DNA from: Schmidtea polychroa
Lineage: Eukaryota
Direction of reading: 5' to 3'
DNA length: 64,000 nucleotides
NCBI GenBank assembly: GCA_044892525.1
Contig: CM097885.1
Location: forward strand, 202,244,001-202,308,000
A program made the position numbers and the translations under genes. Below are positions 6,001-62,046 of this stretch, one piece after another; position 1 is the stretch's first letter; each line of letters begins with the position of its first letter. The notes under the pieces were generated by a model. That model searched no databases. It had not been told where the DNA came from and worked only from the letters and a program-made list of their open reading frames with translations.

Positions 6001-6046
6001 GAATTTTGACTTATTTTTAGTTATAGATTGTATTTTATTTTGTATG

Positions 6047-6048
<2 letters not shown>

Positions 6049-6131
<83 letters not shown>
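6049..6131. repeat. (ATT)n microsatellite
   Basis: Uninterrupted tta/att run read directly. Confidence 0.97.
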
Positions 6132-6668
6132 GAAAATTTAATCTTAAAATCTGAATAAAGAAAAAATATTTTATTAAAAAATAGAATATTAAAATTAATA
6201 TTTTAGTTTTTATAGTTTTTTAAAAATTTTACAACATTAATATCCTTTTAAAATAAAAAGAAATAAAGATAAAGGAAATTAAAAATAAAAATAGATTAAT
6301 AATCAAAAATTAAAAGATGTTCCTAACAACTTATATTTTAATGATTGACAATATTATAATTATTTGAGGGTTCAGTTCTTCATGAGTCACAATGAAAAAT
6401 TTTGTAAATTGACTAATTTCAGAGACATTTTTCATCAAATTTTTTTATTGCGATGTAAATGAGTTAAATGAATTAATGATTTTCTATTACTTGGTGGCCA
6501 ATTTTACATTTGAATGTCTTGTTAAATCAAACTTAATAGCACGAGAAAAGTAATATAACAGAGTATTTATAACAATTATGCTTATTCGCGTAGAATATTT
6601 TTCCGCGACCGGAAACATTTTTATTTATACATATTTCCATTTTAATGCAAATGTTCAAGGCTATAGAC

Positions 6669-6908
6669 CAGTTCTTCCCGACCTTCTTTATACCATGCCC
6701 CACCGTAGTATTTTCAAAAATCTGTCAAAATAATCAGTATTGCTAGTATGCAAAAATAACGGTCGATGAAATTATTGTATGCATGTTATTATATTTAATT
6801 GTGAATGAGAATATTATATGTGGAATAGTTAATAATTGCTAACGTGTCCCACCTCTGAAGCGCGGTGCCCCACTTATGAGGTGTGAAGCCCCACCGTGAG
6901 AAACACTG
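6669..6908. mobile_element. hAT-type MITE (240 bp)
   Basis: Imperfect TIRs CAGTTCTTCCC / CAGTGTTTCTC (revcomp of right end); perfect 8-bp TSD CTATAGAC at 6661-6668 and 6909-6916; internal GCCCCAC motifs. Confidence 0.88.
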
Positions 6909-8549
6909 CTATAGACAATGATTTTGTGTATTCAAGGTCAATGCAATCATTTTATATTACCGACATGCCTGCATTACATGCGCAAAATTTGACACTAAAA
7001 ATAGAAAATAGCATGGTTAGAAAAAAAAATTCAGCGACTGTATTCCTTTGACCAGGTGCCATTGAGTTTGAAAAATTATCTTGGTGGGAGAAAATTGAAA
7101 ATTTATACGATATAAAAAAGTCACTGTCTAGCTTTGGGGTCTAGTCAAGAAATTTCGGAAATGATTGAAAATATATAAACTAATAATTATTAATAAATTA
7201 TTTTATTTAAAGTTTTCAAAAATGTTATAAAGCCTTAATACTTATGAGATGACATGATAATTTCTAAAGCAATAAACCAATAAAAACAATCTAAAATATA
7301 ATTTAAACTATTCTCATTCATATACATAACAAGTAAACCAAGTCTCTTGATAAAGGTTGAACCTAAAATTTATGATATTTTATTGTCTTATTGTAATCTA
7401 ATTCGATCAATTATCATTATGATAAAATCTCAAAATTGGAAATATTTTTAAGAATTATTCCTGAAAATTTTACACAAGCAGTTCTTATTGAAATTTTATT
7501 ATTAATGTATCTTCTCATAAAACTTTGTAAAACATTACTTGTGAATCATAATATTAATTCACATAAAGAACATTCTGTTGAACTGCTTTCCTTGCAATGT
7601 AGTTATTGGGCAATATCTGCTATTCGTATATCATGTGCGCTGCGACTAGCTAGAACTGGTGCGGCCGAAATTCATCATATAATTATTAATACATACCAAA
7701 TCATATAATATCTTGGCCGCCGATTTATTTACGATTAAAAGAAATGTCAATGCATTTAAGAAGAAATTATTCCAAGTATTAATTTCAATAAATATCAATT
7801 AAATTAAATATTTGCCACGTATTTCTTCAAAGTGATATTTAGATTTTTTTTAAATATATTTTTGGTTTGAAATAAATTTTCAATTCATAAGCATTGTCAA
7901 CAAAGTCTGCATGTCTATTCAACATGCCATTGGATTTTGAACTCTTGTTCATTTTGAATTATACACTTTTGGGTTGGTTTTTCGGTTTTTCAAATATTCA
8001 AATTTGATGTAGTATTTTAATATTCTTCATTAAAGGTATTCGTTGAAGTGATATAAAAACTGGACTTGTTTGATGCATCTTTTTGAATGCCACTTTAAAC
8101 ATTTTATTAATGACAATAGTTTGTTTAATTAAATTAATTAATATCGTTCTTGGCAAAATATTGGCTATATAAGACCAAATAATGGATAGGAAATCTAATA
8201 AAAGTTATTTGGTGTTCGAAATAGAAACTTTCTTCGTCGTTAATATTTTATTTTTATTTTATGTTACTATTTATCAACGGAAATGGTTGAGCAAGATTCT
8301 TTTGCTTAATTTTTCATCTAATGTAGTTTTTATTTGGAAAGATACATATGTTTGATACATGAGTCACTCCTTTACCAAATTTATTTAACACTGGTACTAT
8401 GATGTCGGTCAAATTGACCTGCATTTACATGTGAAACTTTTTTGAATTATAATACTAGTGTTAAAAAATTAGAGTAGATTTATGAACAATATTTAATGCT
8501 GTTTTAACGTGATTTACATGAATATTTGCTGCAATATATAACCGTTGAT

Positions 8550-8974
8550 GGTTTTATATTCATCGAATATTTTCCAAAAGGTAGAAAAATCGCCATTGAA
8601 TACTATTTAAAACTATTGGATCGTTTAAAAGATAAAGTCAAACAAAAACGACCACATTTAACGAAGAAAACCTGATTACGCACTGTTACACAAAGGTGTA
8701 ACTGCAAAAGCAAAACTAGTGCAGTTACGTTACGAATTACTTTCCCATCCGCCATATTCTCCAAATTTGGCTCCTTGAGGCTTTCTTTTTTCCAAACTTG
8801 AGGAAGCGGTTTACAGGTAGGAAGTTTCAGTCAAATCAAGTAATCGAATGAGAAACAAATGAATGTTTTTCTGAGAGTATTAAAAACTTGAAAACCGTTA
8901 GATGAAATATATTGTGGGATTTTTCAAAAAAATTATTTTTTCTTATGTAGACCAAAGACTTATCAAACCGCCTA
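8550..8974 (+). pseudogene. mariner transposase C-terminal remnant with 3' TIR
   Basis: Translates to FIFIEYFPKGRKIAIEYYLKLLDRLKDKVKQKRPHL and HPPYSPNLAP (mariner YSPDLAP motif) with stops and frameshifts; ends in a TIR-like sequence followed by TA. Confidence 0.85.
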
Positions 8975-11663
8975 ATGTGAAAAAATTTAACACATGGTCG
9001 TTGAATGAAATATTATTTACTTGTCTCAAAAATAAAAATGAATATTTTTTGCTGCCATTAATCAAAACTTAACGTCATATGTGAAAATTGTTTTTGCAAG
9101 AATCGTTGCCATTATGATCATATGATTCAAAATGATCTAATTTAGTTTTTGGGCTTTTTATGTTATTTAAACATCCACTTGACTTTAAATGGCGTATCAA
9201 TACTTTGTTTATTTTTAACGAATTTGCACTTATTTATTATAATTTAAATAAATATATAATATTTCAATCTATCCCATTAAAGATCACCTTTTTTGCATTA
9301 TTTTCATTTAAAAATATTTTAAACCAATGAAATCGATCTATTCAACAATTAAAACGGTTTAGTAGATTGCCGAGTTTTTTTTAATATCAAGATTTAACTT
9401 TTCAAATTTATGAAGAAAATGCGCAATAGTTTTATTCTGACAATTTTGAATCTTATTCATTAATTGGCTTATTTTTATTTTCCAGAATTTTAGTAATACA
9501 TTTATTGGAAACGATAAAAATATACATTTTTTCACTATTGTGTAAAATTATTTAAAATTCAAAAAGCATTTCATGTACATATATTTTTCGTAAACTAATT
9601 TAATTTAATATTATTTTATTTAATTTTTAAAGTTCAATAAAATCAATAAAATTAATTTGAATAATTAATAAACCTATGATTAATAAGTAATATTGATTGA
9701 CTAACATATGTTAAGGGCTGTCCTGAAAAATTGTGGCCATCTTTAAGACTTATTGAGTAATTGTTATCTAAAACATTTAGTTTTGCTCATTTGATGAGAT
9801 AGAAAATTTAGAATTTTACTGTTAAAACATTTTTAAAAATTTAATTCCATGATAGATTAAAAATTTTCTAAACAATATAAACTGAAATTGAAGTATAAAA
9901 CAATTTCAATGTTCATTTTCAAATTGACCCCCCAGTTGGGCGTGGCACCCACTCTGGGAAACACTATATACTTATATAAATTAATTATTTGTTTAAATAT
10001 TGTATAAAAGTCGTTAAATCAAACTTGTTTTCAAATTAATTTTATGAGGCCAATTTTCTGAAGGATACGTTTTTTAATTCGTTTTTAAAATTAATTGAAT
10101 CATTCGTCTAATGGTTTATCCTTTTAATGGCTTATCCTTTTCAATTTTTAAATCTAAGTTCATTGTCTCAAGTTTTTATGATGAAAGTTACCTTGATTAT
10201 AAAGGCTAAAGTTTTTAACATATAAAACCCTATAAATCTGTAGTTTGCGGATATCAAAATGTCTCTGAAGTGGCCATTGTATTTAAAACTATATTCTCTT
10301 TTGTTTCTATACTGTTAATGTGAATATTACAATGTATTTTGGGCTTAAATTATAAAAGATCAATTTTCTGCAAAAACGCGTTTAGACTACATTTGTCTAT
10401 TGTAAATATTTATGCTTGTAAAAATCACAATATAAATCTCTAAAATGTTTCGGCTATTATTTTATTCTTTTCAAACAAATATTCTCCTTGATTTTAGATT
10501 TATTTAAATTTCTTAATATAAAAACTTTTTTAACTCACTATTTTTCGTCAAAATTTGCAAAATTTTTAACACGATCCAACCGAGGTTTGATACTTATTAA
10601 TATACATAATGTGTTCATTACACAAATTAGAGATAATCCTATTACTTAAATTACCAGACTGTTTTCTTATCATCCTCTTAAAATCTTAATAATTCTCCGA
10701 GTACAGAATTACTAACACAAATTTAGATTCGACTTACTTACACGCACTATTAATGTTATTTATTTCACCATCCGATTTACACACTAATCAAATTACACCC
10801 AGACATACGCAAACATGTATCCTTAGAATCCATAGTTAGTAAAAAACCCTTCTATTCTTTAGTGAAACGAAAAGAAATTCATAGATTGTGTTCTTGGAGT
10901 TGGTAATTCTGCGCAAGGATTAATATCACGAGACAGATATTTAGAGGAACTCAACCGATACTGGCCATTTTACTTCGCCTGAAATTTTTTGTGAATATAG
11001 TAAATTGACTATTATGTGCAAATCAGAAGGTGAAATAAATAGCATTAATATAGTGCTTGTAAAGATTTATGTTAGTATTGTCGTATTTGGAAGGTTATAA
11101 AGAGCATTTGGGAAATTTCACTATTAAGGTTGTTTATAATTCGTCTAAAGTATGCAATATGTTGATTACTGAGTCTCAAACTCCGGTTAGATTGTGTTCG
11201 GATCATTGAATCCTAAAACTAAGGTGTTGTGAACTCACGTTTTGAATGTTTTTTTAAAATTTTAAATGTTAAATTGAGAGCATATGAATTGTAGATGTTT
11301 TGAAATGTGTTGAATGGTTAAATTGAAATATTATAAACTTTGTTTTTAATATTTTCAAATATTTAGATTGATGATTAAAAATTAAAATTATTTTGGATGT
11401 TAATTATATGTCATTTAAAAAAATTAGATTTTATAAATAATTATTTAAATTGAAATTAAAATTAAAAATAATAATAATAGGTTTTTATAAAAGAATTTGG
11501 TGCTATATGAATTAACGTTAAACATTCGTTAAAAGAAACAAGTTAAAGAATCTTGAAATTATATTCAAGGCCAAATAAATCATTAATTGACGTAATTGCT
11601 AGTTCTTATTTATCACAGGAAAAATAAATAAATTTTAATAAATCTATTTTTATATACATTAAT

Positions 11664-12088
11664 CAGTGCCGTTCCTGTGTTGCTGGCCGCTTAGGTGCAA
11701 AAACAATATTGGTGCCCCTATTAATTTAATTTTTTGATTAGAATTTGCTGATGTACGGATCACCCGATGGGGATTATTATCTTGTAAAAATTAACCCTTA
11801 TGGGATTGAATATAGAATATGAAAACCTAATAAAAATGAGTGAAGAAAAAGTTAATAAGCACCAGATTTCCTTTTTGTTTTTCTTTCTGACATCTAAGAA
11901 GGTATAATATTTTTTTTATTCATAATAAAATTTCTAAATAGTAAAACTTACTTTTATTAAGTATACTTTATTTGTTAGATTATCTAAAATCAATTTTTTA
12001 ATATAATAATAGCCGGTCGGCGGTCGCCCTTCAACTTGGCCTCTCACGTGCGGGGGCACCTTCTGCACCCCCACCAGGAACGGGCCTG
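11664..12088. mobile_element. hAT-type MITE (425 bp)
   Basis: TIRs CAGTGCCGTTCCTG / CAGGCCCGTTCCTG; perfect 8-bp TSD ACATTAAT at 11656-11663 and 12089-12096. Confidence 0.88.
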
Positions 12089-12937
12089 ACATTAATTAAT
12101 GTGCTGATTATAATAAGTATATACAGATAAAGCTTATAATAATAGTTTATTAAGACATTTAAATATGAGAAAATTTCAGTGATTAAAAATTTTGGGAAAT
12201 ACCAAGTAAATACAGTTCGTTTTTTACTCTTATCGTGACATTTAAGCGAGCCCCAAATATTTCATTTATAAAACCGCTTTATGATCCATTATAAGTTTAT
12301 ATTTAATTATATTTCCTTATTATTTCAAAGTTCCCAATTTTTAAAAAAAAATCATTTATACAGTATAAAAATTATATTAATTTTTAATATAACCGATTTA
12401 TAACATTCGATAATAGAATAATGAAATGGATACTTTTGTTTTATTTTATTGAATAATGCGTATTTCAATCTAGATAATATTATTAAAAATTCTCCTAATT
12501 TCAAATATTTTGAGTGATTAAACAATTTCATTTAAAATTATTTATGCCAATTTTAATCAATAAAATGAAACAAAATTATTATTAATTTTTTATTACACTC
12601 GAAGAATTTTTCACTGATTAGATTTTTCAGCTTTTATGCTTAACTTATGTCGCCGCGATTTGCGTAAATAACTATTTCAGTTACAAATTTCTTTTATGGA
12701 CTCAATGTTCATTTTTATGGTAAAATGTACCAGCCACATTTTGTGATTTATGTAAAAATGATATGTATATACAATTTTTCAAGGTTTAATAGACCTGAAC
12801 ATAAAATTGTGATGTTTATTTCAAATGAGTGCACAAATTAATATTATTATAACAATTTTATTTATATCAAAAATCAATAACTTTTCTAAAACATGATAAT
12901 AATCTAATTATAATAATAATATAAAATGATGATTTCT

Positions 12938-13129
12938 TGGTAGCAGCATTTATTATTTAAAACAATAAAATGATAATTTAAGCCTTTTGCTGCAAATAAT
13001 GTATTTAATGAAAAAATTTTCGACTATAAGATAGTCTTTGTCAATCTCAAGGATTATTCTTATAGTCGACAATTTTTTCATTAAATACATTATTTGCAGC
13101 AAAAGGCTTAAATTATCATTTTATTGTTT

Positions 13130-13131
<2 letters not shown>
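12938..13131. repeat. long-palindrome repeat family 1, copy A
   Basis: 74-bp inverted arms 12958-13031 / 13058-13131 (one mismatch), 26-nt spacer; same sequence at 24215-24399 and 35495-35574. Confidence 0.92.

Positions 13132-13132
<1 letters not shown>

Positions 13133-13205
<73 letters not shown>
13133..13205. repeat. (AAT)n microsatellite abutting palindrome copy A
   Basis: Direct reading. Confidence 0.97.
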
Positions 13206-24214: not shown

Positions 24215-24399
24215 TTGGTAGCAGCATTTATTATTTAAAACAATAAAATGATAATTTAAGCCTTTTGCTGCAAATAATGTATTTAATGAAAGAATTTTCG
24301 ACTATACGATAGTCCTTGTCAATCTCCTCAAGGAGATTGACAAGGACTATCGTATAGTCGAAAATTCTTTCATTAAATACATTATTTGCAGCAAAAGGC
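24215..24399. repeat. long-palindrome repeat family 1, copy B (perfect hairpin, gap-bounded)
   Basis: Perfect 69-bp arms 24260-24328 / 24331-24399 with a 2-nt loop; N-gaps on both sides. Confidence 0.93.
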
Positions 24400-25456: not shown

Positions 25457-26328
25457 CCTTATAGTGTACATTTTTGGTTATTTGTCGTTATAATTCACTG
25501 TTGTAAAACTCGATAGATTAAAGAAATAAATAATTAAAATGATATGTTCTACCGAATAAAACTTGAGAATAATTTTCTAATAACATAATGATCAGTAATT
25601 CAGATAGAAAATAGTCATTCCTAGTAAATAATTACTGCTTGAATCTGGACAGGTGTCGGTGATAATTCACAGTAATGCTATCACAATATCAAATTTATCG
25701 AAGTTAATTAAATAAAAATTTAATATCACATTTAAATAAACATTTTCATTTTTTTGATAACATCATACCGACTTGATATCAATATTTATGTTGTATTCAG
25801 TATTCACCCAAAAATATTTGTACTAGTAACTATATTAACAACTATGGCAGTTCTGAGGTTTTGATCAATGTACAGTTTCTTCAACACGTTCGAAGTCAAT
25901 GTTCTTATCGTTCGGATTTGCCTCCATCATTTTATTATAAACTAAGATTGATCGCTATAATTAATACGTGACAAATTCTACAAAACATCAATATTCGAAA
26001 AATAAATTTTAATAATAAATTGTAATATGTAGACGTCTTGACCCGTAAGGAAGCAATCTATTTTCATGAATAAAAAAATCGAATATTCAAAATTGTTTGA
26101 ATTACAAAATAGCGAAATAATAGTTGCGTAAAAAAAATTCGTATAACAGTTAAATATTAGTTGTGGAATTTTGCAATATACAAATTGTGGAACAAAGTGA
26201 GAAAATCTTATGTTAGGTGTGAGGTGTTTTTAGCTGATAAATAATTGATTATTTAACCCTCTCCGTGTAAAAAATAATGCTGATATTTATAGTGACCCGT
26301 TCTATTCCCACAAAAACGGTTACAAAAT

Positions 26329-27232
26329 GTGCCTTCAGCTTCATCCCGATGGATTCAAAGCTGGAAAAGGGATGTTGAAGCATTCATTAAAGGATGCGAT
26401 AAATATTTTAAAGTGGTACAAATGCATACTTCAAGACAAGAAGTGATGATCGAATTACTGATCGATAAAGAAATCAGAGATATATATACAGGAGTTGACC
26501 AAAATATCAAATGTTATAAGGAAAGATTGCGGAAGGCATTCGTCAAGAAAACAAGTTTGGCAGAGGATTTCCAATCTGCTATGTCTTATAGACAAACGAG
26601 TGAGGAGTCCGATAAATATTTTACTATCATAAACGAGTTAGTCGATAAAATATTTGGGCATGAGTACAAAAAGGAAAGTTTAACAGAATATCTGCTGGCA
26701 CATTGTGCAACCGAGAAGACTTTAAAAGGAGAATTGTGTCTAAGTGACACCAAAGGAACAACAGAAGTGAAGAAAAAAATCAAAAAGTTACGAATCTCGT
26801 ATAGTTGCAGAAGAGATCTATGCAGTGAGAGAAAGGCCACAACAGAATATAGCAAGAAGTTACAGAGACGCGGTAACAAATCAAGCGAGAAATATTGTAT
26901 CACCAAAATATAATAGCGAGCCGAGAGAGTATGGAGAAGAAAGACCGAACAGAACTAAGAACGAATGTTGGACATGTCACAAGGTAGGACATTTGAGTAG
27001 AAATTGCATAACAAAGAAGGCAGTTACATGTTTTACATATGGAAGACAAGGACATGTAAGAATTCAGTGTCCACAGATGCAGAGAAAGGTAGTCGAATGT
27101 TATGCGTGTGGTACCCCGGAACACGTGAGAAGAGATTGTCAAAAAATAAGGTGTACGAGGTGTAGATTGGGAGGTCATAAAGAAGCAGATTGTTACACAA
27201 ATTTGGAGAAAATGAGATTGGAGATTCAATGA
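26329..27232 (+). pseudogene. gag: Gag with four CCHC zinc knuckles (frameshifted)
   Basis: ORFs 26329-26913 and 26825-27232; knuckles CWTCHKVGHLSRNC, CFTYGRQGHVRIQC (degenerate), CYACGTPEHVRRDC, CTRCRLGGHKEADC. Confidence 0.82.
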
Positions 27233-27499
27233 GAATTTTTGAAGACAACAAGAACGATACGAAGCAGGGCATGGTTATCAAGGAACTAGAAAGGATACAA
27301 GTCAAGTAGACAAGAGATACGTAGCATTCATAGACGAACCAATTGATGAAAGAATAGAAGATAAATACAGAGAATACCCAAATATCAACGCCCTGATAGA
27401 AGAGGAGATAGTCGGGGCAGTGTATTAAACAGCGATGCTGACTCCCAAATTATTAATTATTATAATAAAAATAAAATATCATGTATTATAGAAAAAGAT

Positions 27500-28039
27500 G
27501 TGAAAGATACAGAGGTAACGGAAGAAGAAAATAATGTAATAAGGAAAGTAAACATATTCATAAAAAAGGATTTTGCAGAAGTAGAAAGAGACAAAATACA
27601 AATACTCACATTTGATGAATGGAAAAATGATATTATTAGTTATGATAAAATGCAAGGCCGGCCAAGTGTAACTATTAGAATACAAGACCAGAATATGGAA
27701 TGGTTGCTCGATACAGGAGCTACAGTAAATGTCATGAGTTGGAGTAAATTTGAGAAACTTAAAGATGTAGAACTAACAACAACGACTGATATATTGAGAT
27801 GTGCAAATAATAGTGTTTTAGAAACGAAAGGTAAAGCAATATTAGAAATAGGAATAAATGGCAGGAAAAGAAGTGTAAAGTTTACGATAGTAAGATATAT
27901 GACTCCAGAGGTAATTGGTTGTATAGAGTTGCAAAAATCAATTTGGTATGCAACTAAAGTTGCCAGTAGAAGAGGTCGAGAAAACGAATATTTTGATATT
28001 TACAGAAACGATCAATCATCACTAGGAAGTTTTAAATGA
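27500..28039 (+). pseudogene. retroviral-type aspartic protease
   Basis: WLLDTGATVNVM catalytic motif followed by the ANNSVLETKG flap-like segment. Confidence 0.85.
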
Positions 28040-35494: not shown

Positions 35495-35574
35495 AATAAT
35501 ATAAAGTGATGACTTTTTGGTAGCAGCATTAATTTATAGTTAAACAATTAAATGATAATTTAAGCCTTTTGCTG
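35495..35574 (+). repeat. long-palindrome repeat family 1, copy C (outer part of left arm only)
   Basis: Matches about 12914-12991 (ggtagcagcatt...atgataatttaagccttttgctg); preceded by AAT-rich sequence. Confidence 0.85.
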
Positions 35575-35839
35575 TGAAGTATATATTCAATATGCAAACA
35601 TAATTATATTTCGATTTTTATTCCTAATGATTCTTATATTATTTTTAAAAAGAAAATATTGAAGATCAACAAAAACTGATCGGACTGGTGATTTCTATGA
35701 TCTGTTCCTTAGTGTTTGGCTGTTTGTTTATGATGAGAATTGCCTCTTTAAATCTGACATTTTTATTTTGGATATTTCCATTGGCTAAGATTTCAGTTAC
35801 AATATTTTTTCTTTCCTTCTTTGGTTGACATTGTTTGAG

Positions 35840-42728: not shown

Positions 42729-42922
42729 CTGACGAAAGATATGTTCAGGAAAGATAATCTATCTTTCATTAAATGGCATCTACTGGCGAATTATGTTTTG
42801 ACTATGATTTTATCTTTTGATGGATCTATTATTATTAACTTCTTGTACGTTGATTCTTTGGTATTGATTCTACAGAATCCAGTTGATTTAGTTCATGCCT
42901 CAATTATCTCGTATTTAATTCA
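42729..42922 (+). repeat. 194-bp direct repeat, copy 1
   Basis: 193/194 identical to 44328-44521; followed by an A-tract (42922-42947). Confidence 0.95.
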
Positions 42923-44327
42923 AAAAAAAAAAAAAAAAAAAAAAAAATCAAATTTTATTTTAATCAATTGACGGCACTTGGCCAGGAAGGGGAGAACTTC
43001 TCACCCTTAGAGTTCTGTAGCTTTTAATTCAATGACCGATGGATACCAGAGTTATAAACTCAGGTATCAGAACGTGGGTTTCCAAATGGGTTGGAGTAAT
43101 TGGAGTAATTGGAGTAATTGGAGTAATAGGAGCATTTGGAGCAGTTGGAGTAATTGTAGCAATTGGAGTAATTGTAGTAATAGGAGCAATTGGAGTAGTT
43201 GTAGTAATAGGAGCATTTGGAGTAATTGGAGCAGTTGGAGTAATTGTAGCAGTTGTAGCAGTTGGAGTTGGAGATCGTCATTTAGTTGGGAGAAAGATGG
43301 TGTCAGAGTTATGGATTCTGCAATAGTGGTAACATTGTCTTGGTAGAGTTTTGGAAGTCATCATCGTAGGAGTTTTCAGTAGTTTAACGATTTGGTGCAG
43401 GTGTTCAGAATTTAGAGGTTTGGATTGGGCTTGATAGGTGGAGGTGATCGATATTGCAAGATTATTGATGTTGGTGTATATTTCACTGTTTGGATTGATT
43501 GTAGTAGTTGGAGTGAATGGAGCAGTTGGAGCAAATAGAGCGGTTGGAGTAAATGGAGCAGTTGGAGTAGATGGAGCAGTTGGGGAGGTCCGCCATTTGA
43601 GAGGAATACCGGATCGTATATGATAATATCTGAAATAAATAAATGTCGGGGCAGGAAGGCTCCCTTGCAAGGTTTATATATCGCATATTATATTACTTAT
43701 TATAGTATATATTGGAAGGAGTTGGTGAAGGTTGGGATAAGTATGGATAGTAGTATTAGTTCGTAATGTTAGTGATTATAGTAGTGATAGTATAATAAAG
43801 ATCATTATAGTATTGATAAGAACAACTAAAAAGACCACCAAATAGGCAGAACCCCTACAAGGATTCCTACATTAACCCATTCGGTGATTGGCACACGCAG
43901 TACATTATTAATNNNNNNNNNNNNNNNNNNNNNNNNNNNNNNNNNNNNNNNNNNNNNNNNNNNNNNNNNNNNNNNNNNNNNNNNNNNNNNNNNNNNNNNN
44001 NNNNNNNNNNNNNNNNNNNNNNNNNNNNNNNNNNNNNNNNNNNNNNNNNNNNNNNNNNNNNNNNNNNNNNNNNNNNNNNNNNNNNNNNNNNNNNNNNNNN
44101 NNNNNNNNNNNNNNNNNNNNNNNNNNNNNNNNNNATTAGCAATAACAATAATAATATTATATTAAATACATTAAGAATAATAATATTACACCATTAGGAA
44201 TTATGGTCATTAAGTTAATTTAGAGAGAGTTGGTTGAATTAGAGAGTTTAGATATTTATATAGTTGATTAGTAATAGTAAATAATATAGATAATAGCCAT
44301 AGTACACAAATAAAATAGGATAATGCT
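42923..44327 (-). mobile_element. putative retro-insertion with Pro/Thr-rich frame and 9-bp tandem repeats
   Basis: Lies between the 194-bp repeats; A-tract at left end; minus-strand frame (43670 to about 43040, one stop) rich in TPTAP/TPI repeats; contains an N-gap. Confidence 0.45.
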
Positions 44328-44521
44328 CTGACGAAAGATATGTTCAGGAAAGATAATCTATCTTTCATTAAATGGCATCTACTGGCGAATTATGTTTTGA
44401 CTATGATTTTATCTTTTGATGGTTCTATTATTATTAACTTCTTGTACGTTGATTCTTTGGTATTGATTCTACAGAATCCAGTTGATTTAGTTCATGCCTC
44501 AATTATCTCGTATTTAATTCA
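44328..44521 (+). repeat. 194-bp direct repeat, copy 2
   Basis: See copy 1. Confidence 0.95.
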
Positions 44522-51599: not shown

Positions 51600-51955
51600 G
51601 GGTCCGTCTACAAAGTACGTAACACTCCAGCAGGGGGGTGTAAGAAAATGTGACGGTTTGCGACAGGGGGAGGAGGGGGTTTAGGCCACGTGTGACGTCA
51701 CACATTTGTTTTTTTAAATTTTCTAATTTTTTGATGTGTGCTATATAATTGTCTAGTCTAATTTTACGTAGAATTTTATATTTTAATACTGAAGTGTGTT
51801 TTAGATTAAATTTTAATTCGATGTTAATTAAAAAAAAGTTTTCTTTGAAAGTGTGACGTACTTTAGATGAGGGGGTCCGAGATTTGTGACATGGGGGGAG
51901 AAGGGGTGGTTCAAAATGGTAAAAAAATAGCATGACATACTTTATGGACGGCCCA
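51600..51955. mobile_element. PIF/Harbinger-type MITE
   Basis: TIRs GGGTCCGTCTACAAAGTACG / GGGCCGTCCATAAAGTATG; flanking TTA at 51597-51599 and 51956-51958. Confidence 0.8.
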
Positions 51956-52316
51956 TTATTTGAAAATCCTTGAAAATATATTGATATTTTTTTACTGAAA
52001 AAAACCCTATTGAAAAGTCCCTATTGAAAAAATAGTATTACAATAAAAATAATCGGAGCTGAAAGCATTAAGAGCTAGAAAGTTAAAATGTGTATAATAA
52101 TACTCTAATAAGATGGAATTGCTAAGATAATTTAAAATGAATATTAAAATTTGTTCATTATTGTTTTTATTTGTTATTAGTGATCACCCAGTAGTCGGAA
52201 TTAGACTGTAATTCATTTAATTTTTAAGTTTGAATTGTTCTGAAAGTTTTTCATTATTTTATATAATATTTACACTATTTATATTAGCGTTTGGACTATT
52301 ATTATTTTGACTTTCA

Positions 52317-52319
<3 letters not shown>

Positions 52320-52373
<54 letters not shown>
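52320..52373. repeat. (TA)n microsatellite
   Basis: Direct reading. Confidence 0.97.
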
Positions 52374-52375
<2 letters not shown>

Positions 52376-52692
52376 TCTTCTTTGTCTCTCACTATGTCAA
52401 AACATAATGAAGTTAGGTGTGAATTTGTGAACAAAATTAGACAAGGTTTAAATAATAAAACATACTTACTCACTTTGTTGAATACACAAAGAAACAATAG
52501 TTTAATGTGAAATATTTAATTTAATTTAATGTATTTGTAATACATATTATATATAAATTTTAGCTCTCTGAACTCCTTCATATAAACTTTGACTATGCCA
52601 AATCTCACACTCTTACATGTGCGCAATATGCTTAAAAAGAGTAAAAAAATTCCCTTCAGGTATAAATGGTTACAAATGTTTAATTTCATTTT

Positions 52693-52982
52693 AGTAGTGG
52701 ATGTATGGCCTTCACGGACCCAACCCCCCCTAGCCCCCAGTGCCAAGCCCCTTCACATCCAGACTAAAAAACTAAACTTTTTCATCTTTTAACCCCCTAT
52801 ATTTACATCTTTTAGTCATAAAACCCTCAAATACACGGCTCCAATCCTCACAGACCCAAGTGATTGAAGTGGGAAACTTGAAAAGGGTCAGCGTCCGTGA
52901 AGGCCATACATCCACTACTATAAAAATATAAAAAATTTAAATCTTAAAAACTAGCAAACTGCGCAACTTGCTAATTTAATAG
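52693..52982 (+). repeat. left TIR (290 bp)
   Basis: Reverse complement of 57745-58035 apart from two substitutions and one homopolymer indel. Confidence 0.96.
52919..52982 (+). promoter_or_regulatory. putative TIR-borne promoter (TATAAAA plus palindrome centred on TGCGCA); mirror copy at 57745-57808
   Basis: Motifs lie just upstream of both start codons (52992 and 57715); function is inferred. Confidence 0.45.
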
Positions 52983-52991
52983 TATTTAAAA

Positions 52992-54283
52992 ATGGCTAAT
53001 AAAAATAAATTAAATCTTGATTACAATAAAGAGTTTATGCATGAAATTAAAAAAATTGATATTTTAAAAATATCACCAACTTCAGGATCTATTGCAAACT
53101 TAAATCGTAGGGGTGATATAGTTTTTCAATCTCTTCAAACATCAAACCCTATAGATATTTGTAATGCTAAATTATATTATAAAATTGAATTAGAAATTGA
53201 AGCAAACAAAGATATAACCCTAGAAAACAATTTCTTTCCAAATTTATTCTCCAACATGAGATTAAAACTAGGATCATCAGAAATTGAAACTGTTTTATAT
53301 CCAGGAATATATTCTACAATGTTAAATTTTATATTAACTGGTTGTGATTATAAAAATGAATATGGTGAATTAACAGGTTGGATTCCTGATGTTAATAAAG
53401 GGGATTTAGATAAAGATGGTTTAGATATAAATTATGGTTACCATAAAAGAGTTGAACTTTATAAATCTAAAAAATTTGAAGGTTATTTTGAATTAAAACA
53501 CTTATTTGGATTCCTTCAAAACTATAACCGTATACTTCATAATGTTTTTATAGAATTAACCTGTAATAGACTAGAAGGTGATAAAAAATTGTTCTATGGA
53601 GGTGTAGATACAAAAGCTAAATTAAAATTATCTACATATACCTGAATGGACTTTAAATCCTCAATATGAAATTAAACTCCTTGAAAGATTAAATTCCAAC
53701 AAATCTATAAATGTAAATTATTTAAATAGTCTGTAGTGAATTTAGTATGACAGAGGGTTCAACATATTCTATAAAGGTAGCAAATTTAGCATACCGACCG
53801 AGATATATCTTTATTGGATTCAAAGAAGTAGATTCATCTTTCCAAAAAAATAACTTGTTTATTCAAAAGATTGGAAATGATAATTTAAAATCAATACAAA
53901 TTCAATTAAATAGTTCTTATTATCCAATAAATAGAATGGAATTTAATATTGAAAATAATGAAAACATATTCCCATATCTGAATTATATTGAAACATGTTA
54001 TGATTTTAAAGTTGAACCACAATTAAGTTTAGAAGATTTCAAAAATTTATATTCTATATTTTGTATAAATGTATCAGATCAAGATGATCGTCTAGCTATA
54101 AATAATGTTGATGTTACACTTCATATAACAAAGGATTCTAATTTTAAAGCTAAAGTATATACATTAATATTAGAAGAAAATAAAATAGAATCTTTTGGAC
54201 TATTTGTCAACAACTCTACTCGAGTATATTTATCAACATTTTTCATTGTTTTCCCAAAGACTGAATTATTTAAAAGTTTATAA
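52992..54283 (+). pseudogene. Polinton-type double-jelly-roll major capsid protein (two frameshifts; C-terminus fused to antisense polB)
   Basis: Motifs LENNFFPNLFSNMRLKLGSSEIE, GWIPD, LKHLFGF..Y..IL.N, RPRYIFIGF, LNSSYYP, YTLILEE resemble Polinton capsids; bridging frame 53641-53736 PEWTLNPQYEIKLLERLN. Confidence 0.78.
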
Positions 54284-57200
54284 ATCATGTCTAGAAAAGC
54301 ATTTCCATTTCTTTTTGCTTCATTCCTAGATTTAATATTTCCCTCTATAAACTTTTTCATAAATGGTCTTTGGGAAAACTTTATTATAGAATGGATATTT
54401 TTTATTTTCATCCCATGAGAAAGATAAAACTTCAACAACCTATAGTGACAAAGATAATAAGTTTTATCAGTTTGATCACATAAAAGTTTTGTGGTTGTTG
54501 GTCTATCTTGTTGGGATGATAATTCATTGGAATCTACTTTCCTTTTTACTGGAGCAAAAGGAAAGTATCTAGTAACATATTTTATATCATTGGGGTATTC
54601 TAAATCACATTCTATTATATATCCCACTTCTGAATCTTTTTCTGTTGATAATATTTGATTCATAAGTTTTCTTAGGAGATCCTTTTCCTTGGGGATATCT
54701 ACCTGAATGAACTTATCAATTGGAAGGTATTGAGTCATTACTCCTGAATATAATGCTGTTGCATCTATATACATTATTTCTGATGGATTTGATAATCCTT
54801 CCTTTATTAATTTAGAATCCTGTTCTGTTTTTATTTGTATATAGTCTGCTTCAGGATCTTCACTAAAGAATTTCTTATAGAGAGATAGGAAGTTGTTTGC
54901 AGTGATTTCTCGGTCTCCCATCACGGAGCTAACACCCCCTCGAATATTTTCTTTAAGTACATTAAACATGTCGAGTTCAGTTAATAGTTCTATAGATGCT
55001 GTCTCGGAGCCAGAGGTCCACATAGTATATAATAATATATCCCAAGCTAGAGATGGGGATGTTATATAGTTGTAGGGTTTTAATTCAAATGCCTTGCAAA
55101 ATCCTTCAAAACAGTCTGCAAGGATATAAACATCGAGGGTTAAATACATGTCAGTATATTCCCCAATGTTTTTACATTTGAATAATTTGAACATTTTGTT
55201 GGCTCGGGTATATTCTTGATCACTTATACCCATTTGATTTAATTTTGAAAAGAATTCCTCTTGACCTGGTAATTCTGTTTCATTATAACGATCAAAAGAA
55301 TCTATATAATCATAAGGATAGATTCCTTTAGCCAGACATGTTTTATATTCCTCCTGGGGAATCTTATTTTTTACTAATACTTTTTCTATTGTATATGTAA
55401 AGTCTTCTGGTTTCATAGTTTTAGCTATTCCATCCAAAGACATTGATAGAAAGTTTAATGGATCTATAAACTTCAATCGTCCATATTGTACATATTTATA
55501 TTTCTCTTTTGTAAGTCCTATGACTTTAAAAGAGTTTTTAGCCTTTGCAGCTAAATGCTTTATGAATAAATGTATATCATATCCAAAAAGATTATGGAAT
55601 ATGACAGGGATAAAGTTTGGTTTCCTACAATTAATATTGCAGTTTTTATGGGCTGCACCCCTAAAGTTGTTTAGTTTTTTAAAATGGTCGTGATCTGGGA
55701 CTTTTATGTTTTCTTGTCTTTCTTGTCCTTCGTGAAATAGTCTTTGTTCTTCCTCTTCAAGACTTTCAGAATGACTTTCAGGATGGGGATCCTCAAATGG
55801 TTGTTTGCACATCCAACAAGTTGTTGCGTTTTCATATTCTTCCCATTGTTGTTCTGAAAAGTTTATTAGAAAGTTTGTTTTTAATATTTTAAAGAGTTTA
55901 TGTTCTAAATCGTTTATATCTTTAGTAAAATGATTTAGAGTTTCTTCTTCTGAGGATCCTCTATATGAATATTCTTTAGATTCTATAAGTTCGGGGTAAT
56001 TACTTTTAAAAAACAGTTTATAAGCTGATGCTACTTGTTTTGTTAGTTTTACTGTATAAGATTTATTATTTAAGTCTAGAAAGTTTTTCATACTTTCCCA
56101 TCCTGTTGATTTTCGTTGATTCCATGATTCTAATAGATTATTTTTTTCTATTATTTTTAAATATTCTTGCTCTAAATCTTGTTTTATAGTTATAGCTTCA
56201 AGGTCTCCATATATTACACCTAATGATTCTAGTAAGTTTGAAAAGTTTTTAAAGTGCATATTAGACTTTTCTTTGCTTGGCATTTTAATTAATGCTGGTA
56301 GGTTCTTACAACATAATCTTTCATGTTTAAATGCTGCAATGTCTGAGGCTGAATAATATAGACAACGTTCCACCGCTGTGGTGATTTTTTGATCGCATAA
56401 AACTTTGAAAGTTTTTTATTAGAATATAATGTTGTTTCATCTCAATGTCTTCTTGCTCTTCTTCAAGGTTTGACTCTTGAATATTTAAATATTGTTCTTC
56501 CTCATCTAGATCATCATATTCCTTATAAGTTTGTTCTCCTTTTTTATTTTCTTGTAATATTAAAAGATATATTTCTCTATTTTTATCTTGTTCTAATAAT
56601 TCCCTATTTGAAATGTGAATTGGGATGATGTGTTTCCTATCACCTACCTGACAAATATATTCATAAATTTTAAGTTTAATATTATTTAATTTTTCAAATT
56701 TTGGAATGTATTCAATCTTCATTGGGTGTTTAAATCCTTTTGGATATATTAATTCATTTTCATATTGCTTATATTTTGTAGGTCTTTCATTATGATTTCC
56801 TTGATGATGTAAATGTGCTAGTATTGACCATTGGAAACATTTATTATCCTTATTTCGAATATTTATAATGTGAATAGAAGTAAAGGGGGTAGGGATATAT
56901 GATTTAGGGTTTGGAAGTGCTCCTCTCCAATATTCAATTTCAAGTGATTGAAATGAATGAAATTTTAGGTTTGACTCTCCTAATTCTTGTTCAACCACTC
57001 TATGCTCTTCTCCAACTTTATGAATAATATTTTTAATTGTTTTTTTAAATCCCTTGGTTGAGAATAAATAATTATAAGGTGTTTCAATAATACGGTCTAG
57101 GACTGCTGTGTTTACATCTTCACCCCTCCAATATTTTGAGAGGATTCTAATTTTATATTTAATAACATTAAATCTTGATTTACCAAATTTTTTTATAGCA

Positions 57201-57715
57201 TCTTCCATTGATTTTTTTATTTTTTGTTTATTTCTTTTTATATACTCTAAAGATGAAGAGGATATAAATGGTTGTTCAAATTTATCTACATGGTTAAAGT
57301 TATCCCAATTATAATTTTCTTTTTCAAAAGGTTCTTCATCTTCTTCATCTTCTCTAATTTTTATATATTTTTCTTCTTCAAGGTCTTCAGGATCTCTTTT
57401 AACAATAGCACATTGTTTTAAATGTTTTAAATAATAAGATTCTGTGGTGAATTTTAATCTACATATAGGACATTCAAATTTTTTTCTATTTCTTTTAATC
57501 CCAATACAGTTTTTAAAATGGTTATCATATCCTAAAAGTAAATATTTTTCTTTACATTTAGGACAAAGTTTTGAGTTTGTATCATTTAGTCCAACTGTCT
57601 TTAATAAATGCTCTTTAGATTTTTGGTGTGATATTAGTGCTGTTCTATTTTTAAATTTTTTATTGCATATACTACAATTATAAATATTCAAAATTTTAAA
57701 GTTGTTAATATTCAT
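54121..57715 (-). pseudogene. polB: protein-primed family B DNA polymerase (one frameshift near 56375; truncated after motif B)
   Basis: N-terminal zinc fingers; ExoI YGDLE, endonuclease-VII-like CWMC...DHDH...HKNCN, ExoII FHNLFGYD, KGIYPYDY, ExoIII YLTLDV, PolA DATALY, PolB KLLNNSVFGK; no YxDTDS motif C. Confidence 0.92.
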
Positions 57716-57744
57716 TTTTTTAAAAATTTTTTTTATTGGGTATG

Positions 57745-58035
57745 CTATTAAATTAGCAAGTTGCGCAGTTTGCTAATTTTTAAGATTTAAATTTTTTATA
57801 TTTTTATAGTAGTGGATGTATGGCCTTCACGGACGCTGACCCTTTTCAAGTTTCCCACTTCAATCACTTGGGTCTGTGAGGATTGGAGCCGTGTATTTGA
57901 GGGTTTTATGACTAAAAGATGTAAATATAGGGGGTTAAAAGATGAAAAAGTTTAGTTTTTTAGTCTGGACGTGAAGGGGCTTGGCACTGGGGGCTAGGGG
58001 GGGGTTGGGTCCGTGAAGGCCATACATCCACTACT
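57745..58035 (-). repeat. right TIR (291 bp)
   Basis: See left TIR. Confidence 0.96.
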
Positions 58036-58077
58036 CATTTTGTTTCATTAGTTTAAAATAAATAATTCATATTACCA

Positions 58078-59564: not shown

Positions 59565-61142
59565 TCAACCAATGAGAATATTGAAATTTTCTACTAAAAT
59601 TACAAGTTCGGAAATTCGAATTCCTATTTTCTTAGATTCGTTGCAAATCTCTATTATTTTATCCAAATTGGTAACAATATTGGATTTTGAGTTTAACCAG
59701 AATTTTTTATTAAAAAATATTTTACCTGATTTATAAAATATTGTTTCAAGTACAATTTTTAATAGATTTTCTAATAATTGAAGTGAAGAGTGAGTGTTTA
59801 ATAAATTACTGTAAGCTTCATTTGACTCAATCTTATGCAAATATTCTTTCCTTCTCATTAATACAAAATCATTGATAAAAGATTCTTGGCACATAGTTAA
59901 CCATTGGAGTTTTAATTTATGAATAGAATCAAACAAATCGTTCTTGTAAAATTGTAACTCTAATTGGTTTTTACACAATCTTTCTATGAGTTTTACTGCA
60001 CTCATTAACATTTCTAATGTGCTAAAAATAAGAGAAAGGTTTTTCTCTGTTATTGAAGTCACTATACTTGGTCCTAATTCCGAAATATTTTTCAAATATA
60101 AACTTAATTCTTCAATCTTTTGCCCGTAATTTGTGGATATTAATTCATTATTGTCAATGCACGTCATATAGCATTTATTGGTGACAAATTGAAATGTCAA
60201 AACACAATTACAGCAGAGACCCTTTTCACAATTTTGGCATTGATATCCACCGATTATTATGAGTGATGAGGAACATAGTAGACATTTAAAATCTGTGACG
60301 TTGAATAACTCGCAAGTTACGTCCGTTGGCAAATGGTTTGTTAAATGTAACAACACTGCCTTACTCAATAAAATCTGCTTTTCTCTAAAAATATTATTCT
60401 TTTTTAAATGAATTATTGTATATTTTAAAGATTCTAATATAATTTCTTCTGTTTGTTTAGGATCCTTTTGCAAAAAAATAATTATCCAATTAAAACATTC
60501 ATAATGCATTAAATTTGAGAGTTCTAAACATTGTAGGCATCTTTTAAACATGCCTACTTTTTCTAAATGATCACCAACAACTTCGTACTTTTCACCATCA
60601 AAAAAGAATTTATTTTTTGTTAATTTATCTTCAATTATGCTCAATTTATTAAAATTCTCCTGTGAGTTAAATTCTAAAGTTTCTAAATGACATTTGAATA
60701 AAAGAGAGCTTAAAATTCCAAATCTTTGTATGAGTATTTTGGATTTTGAGTTGAACTCTTTCCTATCGGCACAATGAAATTTATTTATCAAATTTTCATA
60801 CATCGATTTACACTTTAAACTGTAATATTTTTCGAAATATTGGAAAAAAGAATTTTTACGAATAAATTCTCTAGAAATATTCAAAATCATATTATTAAAG
60901 TTCTGTAATAATTCTTTCTGTAATTTTCTTCGTATAGGTTTTAAATTCTTTTTCCTACTTGTTGAATCATAAAACGTCAATGATGAAATTTGTGATCTAT
61001 CGAATGGGCAATTAATATTTCTAGACAACCAAGATTTTGTACATTCAACACATAAAGAATGACCACAGTTTTCATATCTTACCATGCAGTCATGAGACAC
61101 TAATAAAGTACATACTAAGCATTCAATATCTTCATAATTCAT
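59565..61142 (-). CDS. intronless 525-aa protein with an N-terminal RING-HC finger and a second degenerate RING; putative E3 ubiquitin ligase
   Basis: Intact ORF; CLVC-x14-CGH-x2-CVEC-x10-CPFD; second unit CLLC-x14-CEKGLCCNC-x10-C. Confidence 0.85.
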   Translation of the reverse strand: MNYEDIECLVCTLLVSHDCMVRYENCGHSLCVECTKSWLSRNINCPFDRSQISSLTFYDSTSRKKNLKPIRRKLQKELLQNFNNMILNISREFIRKNSFFQYFEKYYSLKCKSMYENLINKFHCADRKEFNSKSKILIQRFGILSSLLFKCHLETLEFNSQENFNKLSIIEDKLTKNKFFFDGEKYEVVGDHLEKVGMFKRCLQCLELSNLMHYECFNWIIIFLQKDPKQTEEIILESLKYTIIHLKKNNIFREKQILLSKAVLLHLTNHLPTDVTCELFNVTDFKCLLCSSSLIIIGGYQCQNCEKGLCCNCVLTFQFVTNKCYMTCIDNNELISTNYGQKIEELSLYLKNISELGPSIVTSITEKNLSLIFSTLEMLMSAVKLIERLCKNQLELQFYKNDLFDSIHKLKLQWLTMCQESFINDFVLMRRKEYLHKIESNEAYSNLLNTHSSLQLLENLLKIVLETIFYKSGKIFFNKKFWLNSKSNIVTNLDKIIEICNESKKIGIRISELVILVENFNILIG

Positions 61143-62046
61143 TTTATAACTTCTATTACCGTTGACAAATTTTATTAAATTCCAAATATCATTTTTTTCA
61201 CATTTATTGAATGATGATTGGTTAAAATTAATTCATTTAGATTCTTTAAAATTTTAATATTTAGTAAATTAAAATTTCAAGCAATTGTTTTTAATTTGAA
61301 AATTAAAAATTTTCATTTAATTCATAAAAATTTTTGAAGTTTTAAATTAATATAAAAATACATTTTTAGTTAATTAAATAGAATATTATTATAATTTTTT
61401 AAACGATAAATATCAATATTATAGTTTATAGCAAAAAATTCACTTCATATTCGACATAGAAAGTTTAAAATTTTTCAATAACTTTTGATTCTAATCGACA
61501 TTAGATTTTCATTGAATGTTATCTGAAAATCGACTTATTTATTGAATGATGCATAATTCATCCAATTTATATTTTAAAACTGTTTCACTTTGTCAAATAT
61601 TAAGTTATTTAATTAAAATCTACTTATTTCTTTTAATTTTTGCTTAATAATGTTTAATTTAAAATCTACATCATAATATTTTTGTTTCAACCTTATTTGA
61701 AAATCGACTTTTCCTTAGAATATATAATTTATTTAATTTAACCATGACTTTTTTTAAATTACATTGTTAAATTTTGTTAAAAACGTTTAAAATAAATTTA
61801 ACTTATTATTATATCAGTATGATTGTATCAAATTACGTATTTAATATTAACAGGTGATATTTTAAATTATACATTTACTCATTGTAGAACGATCTTATTA
61901 TTATTATTTTTCAGCACCACAAATTATCGCACTCCCCATTCAATTAGTTTTATTTAACAAGATAAAAGCAATTATAAATTTTAAAATATTTTAATTATTA
62001 AAAAATAACATAATTTTAAACGTTAATAAATAAAAACCAAATAGTA

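Follow-up and report, generated by a model that had tools for sequence, protein, structure and literature searches.

The window analysed here, a 64-kb stretch of AT-rich, eukaryotic DNA, harbours an element of 5,343 bp with two convergent genes, both of which are broken. The element is bounded by long terminal inverted repeats (TIRs) and a perfect 6-bp target site duplication (TSD), and each TIR holds an inner, inverted copy of its own terminal 27 bp, which is referred to as the tip. The features of the locus, from left to right, are as follows.

52687-52692, no strand: left TSD, CATTTT, the same as 58036-58041 (the 7-mers differ)
52693-52985, + strand: left TIR, 293 bp, 98.6% reverse complement of 57742-58035
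52693-52719, + strand: left outer tip, 27 bp, begins (AGT)2; the TSD abuts it; integration end
52720-52859, + strand: C-rich part of the loop (9 G / 53 C), read as ordinary outer subterminal sequence
52860-52892, − strand: G-rich part of the loop (12 G / 3 C), read as the subterminal sequence of a putative second, reversed end
52893-52919, − strand: left inner tip, perfect inverted copy, with junction variants in other copies
52920-52985, + strand: inner 66 bp of the TIR, 20% GC, TATAAAA boxes at 52919 and 52927, imperfect palindrome
52992-54190, + strand: double-jelly-roll-like gene in two frames (52992-53645 and 53726-about 54190)
54190-57715, − strand: pPolB gene with N-terminal zinc fingers (PF03175, E 2e-14)
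57742-58035, − strand: right TIR, 294 bp, 4 differences in 294 relative to the left TIR
57808-57834, + strand: right inner tip, copy of the 27-bp tip
58009-58035, − strand: right outer tip, ends (ACT)2
58036-58041, no strand: right TSD, CATTTT, perfect 6-bp match to the left

The jelly-roll-like gene matches PF21738 (E 1e-7 and 9e-11), and matches to it were found in seven Polinton-type loci; its matches to capsid-like Atlas clusters are a lead only. The pPolB gene suffers a frame break near 56387-56370 and is cut off at about 54190, ahead of the DTDS motif, which lies at residue 1166 of the 1,341-aa L047 polymerase and is absent from the element. It matches residues 8-346 and 359-1091 of that polymerase with identities of 46% and 31%. 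ATG start codons follow the TIRs at a distance of 6 nt on the left side and 26 nt on the right. The four long ORFs of the element match pPolB, zinc-finger and jelly-roll entries only, with no match to an integrase, ATPase or protease, and no Pfam match to a HUH/Rep nickase was found in the same four ORFs. Since there is no integrase and both genes are broken, the element would have to borrow its enzymes.

By its long TIRs, (AGT)2//(ACT)2 ends, 6-bp TSD and pPolB gene the element qualifies as a Polinton/Maverick; in vertebrate Mavericks (AGT)2//(ACT)2 is the commonest end, TSDs measure 6 bp and TIRs range from 46 to 1,447 bp (available text of PMC8097293). It lacks the integrase, ATPase, protease, full capsid set and 13-25 kb length of an autonomous Polinton (general size ranges from the available text of PMC10748475). 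The element is a non-autonomous Polinton/Maverick deletion derivative.

Several other features of the window are worth recording. A frame with an N-terminal RING finger, uninterrupted over 555 codons (59565-61232, − strand), lies 1.5 kb from the element. A small, MITE-like foldback with 82-bp arms and a 26-nt spacer, which also has partial copies in other parts of the window, is recorded at 12950-13139, 24215-24399 and 35542-35591, and the remains of an LTR retrotransposon, comprising a zinc knuckle and an aspartyl protease, occupy 26296-28039. A 194-bp direct repeat (99%, 1,599 bp apart, 42729-44521) encloses an N gap (43913-44134) as well as a tandem array of 9-bp units, and may be an overlap artefact across that gap.

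Anatomy and predicted folding of the ends

The tip occurs in direct orientation at 52693-52719 and 57808-57834 and in exact inverted form at 52893-52919 and 58009-58035, all four copies being identical. The first-pass annotation had described precisely this, a terminal sequence present four times in a mirrored layout. No fifth copy exists in the 64-kb window, even allowing 7 mismatches, and the chance probability of an inner inverted tip copy within 300 bp is about 1e-14. The end units delimited by the tips measure 227 bp on the left and 228 bp on the right and enclose loops of 173 and 174 nt; the stem of both ends breaks off inward at exactly 27 bp, and same-direction tip copies are separated by 5,115 and 5,116 bp. 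The 227-bp unit opens with AGTAGT and closes with ACTACT, the motif of vertebrate Mavericks, in agreement with the initial suggestion that each end unit has two correctly oriented Polinton ends. The TSD flanks the outer tips only, and neither unit has a TSD of its own, the flanks being CATTTT and ATAAAA on the left and TTTTAT and CATTTT on the right. Both TIRs run 66 bp beyond the inner tip copy.

That the unit can fold at the terminus, as was also suggested at the outset, is borne out by structure prediction. The left 227-bp unit has a predicted fold of −37.9 kcal/mol with a z-score of −7.4, and 0 of 200 shuffles were equally stable; the z-scores of the unit range from −7.4 to −8.0, and the 27-bp local stem is predicted at −35 kcal/mol. 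In the predicted fold the 3′ end of the strand is able to fold back on itself. The full TIR duplex is far more stable, at a predicted −364 kcal/mol, and the local stem would therefore need a kinetic advantage in order to form. The loop is unstructured, folding no better than shuffled sequences (z +1.3 and +0.6), and its best self-inverted match is only 8 bp, so that the end is not mostly palindromic in the manner of a parvovirus terminus. A search of Rfam over 52400-53100 returned 2 matches, both far under the gathering score.

The composition of the loop is not uniform. The C/G skew flips at 52860, a change point that was reached in 0 of 5000 permutations. In 7 of the 9 other Polinton termini counted, the sequence adjoining the tip on its inner side has more C than G, and the last 33 nt of the loop together with the inner tip thus read like a reversed end of about 60 bp. 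The sequence beyond the inner tip has no significant similarity to that beyond the outer tip (340 of 2000 shuffles were as good), which, combined with the skew reversal, argues for two different Polinton ends placed back to back and joined to the promoter part of the TIR. From the tip inwards, the TIR consists of the tip itself, 140 bp, a reversed block of about 60 bp that ends in an intact tip, and 66 AT-rich bp. The inner tip is complete to its last base and abuts 20%-GC sequence; judging by its sequence, this 66-bp segment is the probable promoter of the gene beside each end. Near 52848-52859 lies a degenerate direct copy of the inner half of the tip (11 of 12 positions match; 47 of 5000 shuffles were as good). 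The tip motif CCTTCAC, at 52709, recurs in the loop at 52750 and 52848, and these repeats are possible candidates for protein-binding sites.

Other copies and related loci

Contigs from 4 of the 17 listed sequencing runs (X1, X5, X7 and X9) were compared with positions 51700-57741, a stretch that ends where the right TIR begins. Run X1, which may be the sample from which the window came, contains three single-copy flank contigs at a depth of 209-278 and a 183-nt contig that crosses the outer junction with 0 differences, also at single-copy depth. It also contains variants of the inner junctions, namely a 1-base gap at 52893, where the loop meets the inner tip (2 contigs, depth 2,587), one base inserted behind 52921, just past the inner tip (2 contigs, depth 5,481), and a joint of 52926 to 52986 via a different short spacer (1 contig, depth 673). 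The variant contigs over both inner junctions reach 9 and 20 times the single-copy depth, and neither end of the element in the window has these variants; the nest is therefore a trait of a multi-copy, diversifying subfamily. A one-off duplication, which the first-pass annotation had named as an outcome that would undo its reading, does not account for other copies that carry both inner junctions. The summed depth in X1, 58,602 at 52819 and 60,456 at 52893, is about 210 times that of the single copy and is not a copy number. At 52921 the depth is 3-fold higher than that of the loop, which was considered as a copy-number signal and rejected, since overlaps among short contigs raise the depth wherever contigs branch.

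In X5, X7 and X9, jelly-roll contigs depart from the window sequence upstream of 53001-53003, in two records with 148 and 974 letters that do not match, and the TIR-gene junction of the window is hence not universal. The bin means over the loop are 11.6, 0.96 and 0 in these runs, with both genes covered, and the contigs attest presence, not absence. The arithmetic of the X7 bin mean fits one contig matching only about 52894-52926, that is, the inner tip and at most 7 further bases. Such a contig could mean that the inner-tip junction also occurs with a different loop, in which case the nest would be of greater age and generality; an ordinary outer end adjoining AT-rich host DNA would explain it just as well. 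On either reading it hints that the 27 bp are a block common to sister families. No strand-changing joint is present among the 15 of 71 joints listed, and the contigs break at the shared tip, which would hide flips and solos. As a separate observation, the summed X1 depth over the jelly-roll gene rises to 1.7 million against mostly 0.06-0.35 million over the polymerase; the excess is large in three of the four runs and smaller in X9, and suggests that the jelly-roll-like gene is common to many families.

A survey of relatives took in 127 loci (1.09 Mb), 118 of them surrounding related polymerases and the other 9 surrounding ATPases, with some from the same contig; these are distant relatives with about 24-59% polymerase identity. 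The criterion was a perfect inverted repeat of at least 15 bp with a Polinton-type simple-repeat start, closing within 700 bp. A nested inverted tip was found in 0 of the 127 loci, and the window, used as a positive control, scored positive. The other outcome that had been named as damaging, a nested repeat common to Polintons, is thus not what these loci display, and the nest does not seem to be a design general to the family, a statement confined to distant relatives. A tip was recognisable in nine loci (L006, L012, L024, L030, L036, L045, L048, L069 and L089, with L048 doubtful), none of which has an inverted tip copy of at least 18 nt within 1.5 kb; L006 has a 14-nt match with up to 2 mismatches. 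An ATPase-based scan of 10 loci for further termini recognised no new tip. In viral contigs, the exact 27-mer had 0 matches, and a single-protein scan gave 5 stretches, none of them confirmed.

Three of the surveyed loci have ends with features of their own. L086 is a Polinton that has genes for a polymerase, an ATPase, a protease and an integrase-chromo protein, and about 330 bp before its polymerase (L086:1-255) 77-bp arms, about 90% inverted, surround a loop of about 95 nt made up of short tandem repeats. This stem-loop lies at the contig end and is similar in size to the nested end, to which it is a partial parallel; the true tip is not visible, and the other end was not found in that locus. 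The contig of L048 (L048:1-240) starts with an AGTAGT-type sequence, of which a direct copy lies at about 213. At L089:3750-12723 a second pair of inverted repeats, 136 bp in length, encloses a Polinton (5031-12214) that has AGTAGT tips and is flanked by a perfect 6-bp TSD.

Origin and possible use of the inner tip

The reading we favour, at a probability of roughly 0.5, is that the TIR took up the end of a sister element, which was shortened, reached both sides through TIR homogenisation and was multiplied in trans, with the inner tip as a passenger. The end of a sister Polinton that shares only the conserved 27-bp tip would have been joined to the AT-rich promoter part of the TIR, either through a nested insertion, subsequently cut down to about 60 bp, or in the form of a mini-element that already had two ends. 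Pairing between TIRs during strand-displacement replication could then carry the new end to the opposite side, and the polymerase and integrase of intact relatives would amplify the subfamily via the outer tips. The inner tip would be tolerated, and the single-stranded end may form a stem of 27 bp closed by a loop of 173 nt. Precedent for the homogenisation step comes from truncated virophage elements that regained TIRs (available text of PMC8547959), and polymerase-less polintons appear to remain mobile (available text of bioRxiv 10.1101/2025.02.07.637071).

Besides the two unlike ends within each unit, a capture of this kind is favoured by the complete inner tip, which is set against 20%-GC sequence like an integration junction, by the TSD solely at the outer tips, and by the extension of the TIR 66 bp past the unit at both ends, as homogenisation would give. 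The inner-junction variants of X1, the non-universal TIR-gene junction in X5, X7 and X9, the loop without a fold of its own and the lack of a nest in the 127 related loci point the same way. The identity of the four tips, which selection or repeated pairing could account for, counts against it, but weakly, because a TIR divergence of about 1% predicts about one change in 108 bp. It also counts against a capture that the X7 contig could make the nest older and more general, that neither the donor end nor a parent TIR lacking the nest came to light, that the survey consists of distant relatives with just nine recognisable tips, that L086 has a terminal stem-loop of similar size, and that X1 may be the window's own source sample.

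The evidence bears differently on the other explanations. An assembly artefact or a one-off duplication at the locus is very improbable and already largely refuted: there are six N gaps elsewhere in the window and no contig among those listed spans the whole stretch, but the outer junction is covered without differences at single-copy depth, the variant contigs over both inner junctions have 9-fold and 20-fold that depth, and the TSD is perfect. We consider it quite unlikely that the inner tip arose as a copying error, in which the polymerase jumped onto the nascent or displaced strand of the same molecule, read its terminal 27 nt in reverse and jumped back before homogenisation; such an event would give the perfect identity and the sharp stop at 27 bp, and an adenovirus mutant with embedded ITRs is reportedly on record, judging by a title alone, but it requires two switches, one of them exactly at the tip, and leaves unexplained why a further 33 bp have the reversed skew and are unlike the subterminal sequence of the outer end. 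It is rather improbable, too, that the 227-bp unit is an independently mobile mini-Polinton (a MITE) with 27-bp TIRs, two of which bracket the genes as in a composite transposon with usable inner and outer ends. The 227/228-bp non-coding units with their correctly oriented (AGT)2 ends have the form of a MITE, and the summed loop depth in X1 is some 210-fold that of the flank (not a copy number); against this, the missing TSDs and the 66-bp continuation of the TIR at both ends indicate that the two units are not independent insertions, and the 64-kb window contains no solo unit. In addition, the X1 depth over the polymerase start beside the TIR (127,192) is, as a rough comparison, above the approximately 60,000 over the loop, so that no excess of solos is needed. 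Recombination between the same-direction tips would also leave a solo with a TSD, and solos alone would therefore not prove MITE mobility.

A further possibility, which we regard as doubtful, is that the fold is used: the 3′ tip of the displaced strand would pair with the inner copy 200 nt away, and the advantage so gained would have driven the spread of the subfamily. The fold might rebuild the duplex origin locally, without end-to-end pairing across kilobases, or it might provide a 3′-OH at 57808 with the interior as template and hence self-priming like that of a parvovirus ITR; snap-back molecules, inverted dimers and flipped loops would be the expected products. The geometry follows from the sequence, the predicted stem is stable, and the nest is present in many copies. 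The order of a hairpin followed by a unique inner segment parallels the 125-nt palindrome and 20-nt D of the AAV ITR (available text of PMC11575299), and hairpin priming has already been proposed for the terminal palindromes of virophages and PLVs (available text of preprint 10.64898/2026.07.28.741278), even if these published palindromes mostly go with non-pPolB replicases. On the other hand, the long, unstructured loop is unlike a parvoviral hairpin, the full TIR duplex outcompetes the local stem in predicted stability, the element encodes no hairpin-resolving nicking enzyme, and no nest was found in the 127 related loci; the identical loop orientation at both ends also speaks against use of the fold, weakly, as it concerns one molecule. 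The preferred reading, capture of a sister end, and a later use of the fold are not mutually exclusive.

More speculatively, and we think improbably, the element could represent an animal Polinton lineage with self-folding ends, whose strands form dumbbells, whose 3′ ends self-prime or locally rebuild the origin, and whose 5′ stem-loop templates a free, two-ended minireplicon of 227 nt. If so, defective copies could replicate beside or without terminal-protein priming and would give rise to inverted dimers and flipped loops; this would be a step from adenovirus-like towards parvovirus-like replication. If the inner tip is merely a relic, the case shows how Polinton TIRs grow by capture of sister ends. 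Polinton excision and replication have been modelled, not shown, and the model is still cited as a proposal (available text of 10.64898/2026.07.28.741278); two candidate ends per side amount to a natural experiment. Counts of TSDs, flipped loops, dimers and solos in one genome could test integrase end choice, TIR homogenisation and snap-back priming. For annotation, the case carries a warning, as such ends mimic MITEs and solos can come from recombination.

Known systems with repeated or folding ends

Four-ended transposons, such as the bacterial composites Tn5 and Tn10 and the double Ds of maize, have an inner and an outer end on each side. The 227-bp units differ from these in having neither a transposase nor a TSD of their own and in lying inside a longer TIR. 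An adenovirus 5 mutant with embedded ITRs was reportedly described by Haj-Ahmad and Graham in 1986; this laboratory mutant of a non-integrating virus is said to have a linear, protein-primed genome in which the ends are repeated at internal positions, whereas the element is natural, integrated, symmetric and multi-copy.

Folding termini offer a second set of comparisons. AAV ITRs are the working model for fold-back priming and flip-flop (available text of PMC11575299), and AAV2 and other parvoviral ITRs resemble the element in a terminal fold-back followed by a unique inner segment within the ITR and in a 3′ end that could prime. In AAV, however, all 125 nt are palindromic and the Rep nickase resolves the hairpin, whereas the element pairs 27 bp and encodes no nickase. 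The ITRs of bidnaviruses, which are Polinton-derived, form no hairpins according to the available text of PMC4061559. In the available text of preprint 10.64898/2026.07.28.741278, virophage subtypes 1, 2, 5 and 6 and PLV subtype 4 of Halocafeteria seosinensis have palindromes inside the TIR and next to the TSD, with an inverted repeat of 52 nt in subtype 5, a proposal of hairpin priming and a gap limit of 10 nt in the search. These share with the element an inverted repeat inside each TIR that adjoins the TSD; they differ in gaps of at most 10 nt and in mainly non-pPolB replicases, where the element has a 173-nt loop, a pPolB and an inner copy of the whole tip. Casposons are likewise self-synthesising, and some of their TIRs hold internal palindromes, but they are prokaryotic and use a Cas1 integrase, and the available text of PMC4046053 does not describe the palindromes as tip copies.

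The first-pass annotation knew of no nested TIR of this kind among described Polintons, which stands in part: short-loop palindromes in relatives of Polintons are already reported in the available text of preprint 10.64898/2026.07.28.741278, and full-text searches, with few subscription papers in their scope, turned up no animal Polinton whose TIRs are described as having a long-loop inverted tip. The available portions of PMC11296320, PMC6431247 and PMC3014272 contain nothing on a nested-tip design. With animal Polintons/Mavericks (polintoviruses/adintoviruses) the element shares its tips, the 6-bp TSD, a TIR length within range, pPolB and the jelly-roll gene; it differs from them in its length of 5.3 kb, the lack of integrase, ATPase and protease, its broken genes, and the inner inverted tip in each TIR, which the available text of PMC8097293 leaves unmentioned. 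The nested tip is real and multi-copy, in its long-loop form apparently undescribed, and most likely amounts to a structural variant within a single defective subfamily.
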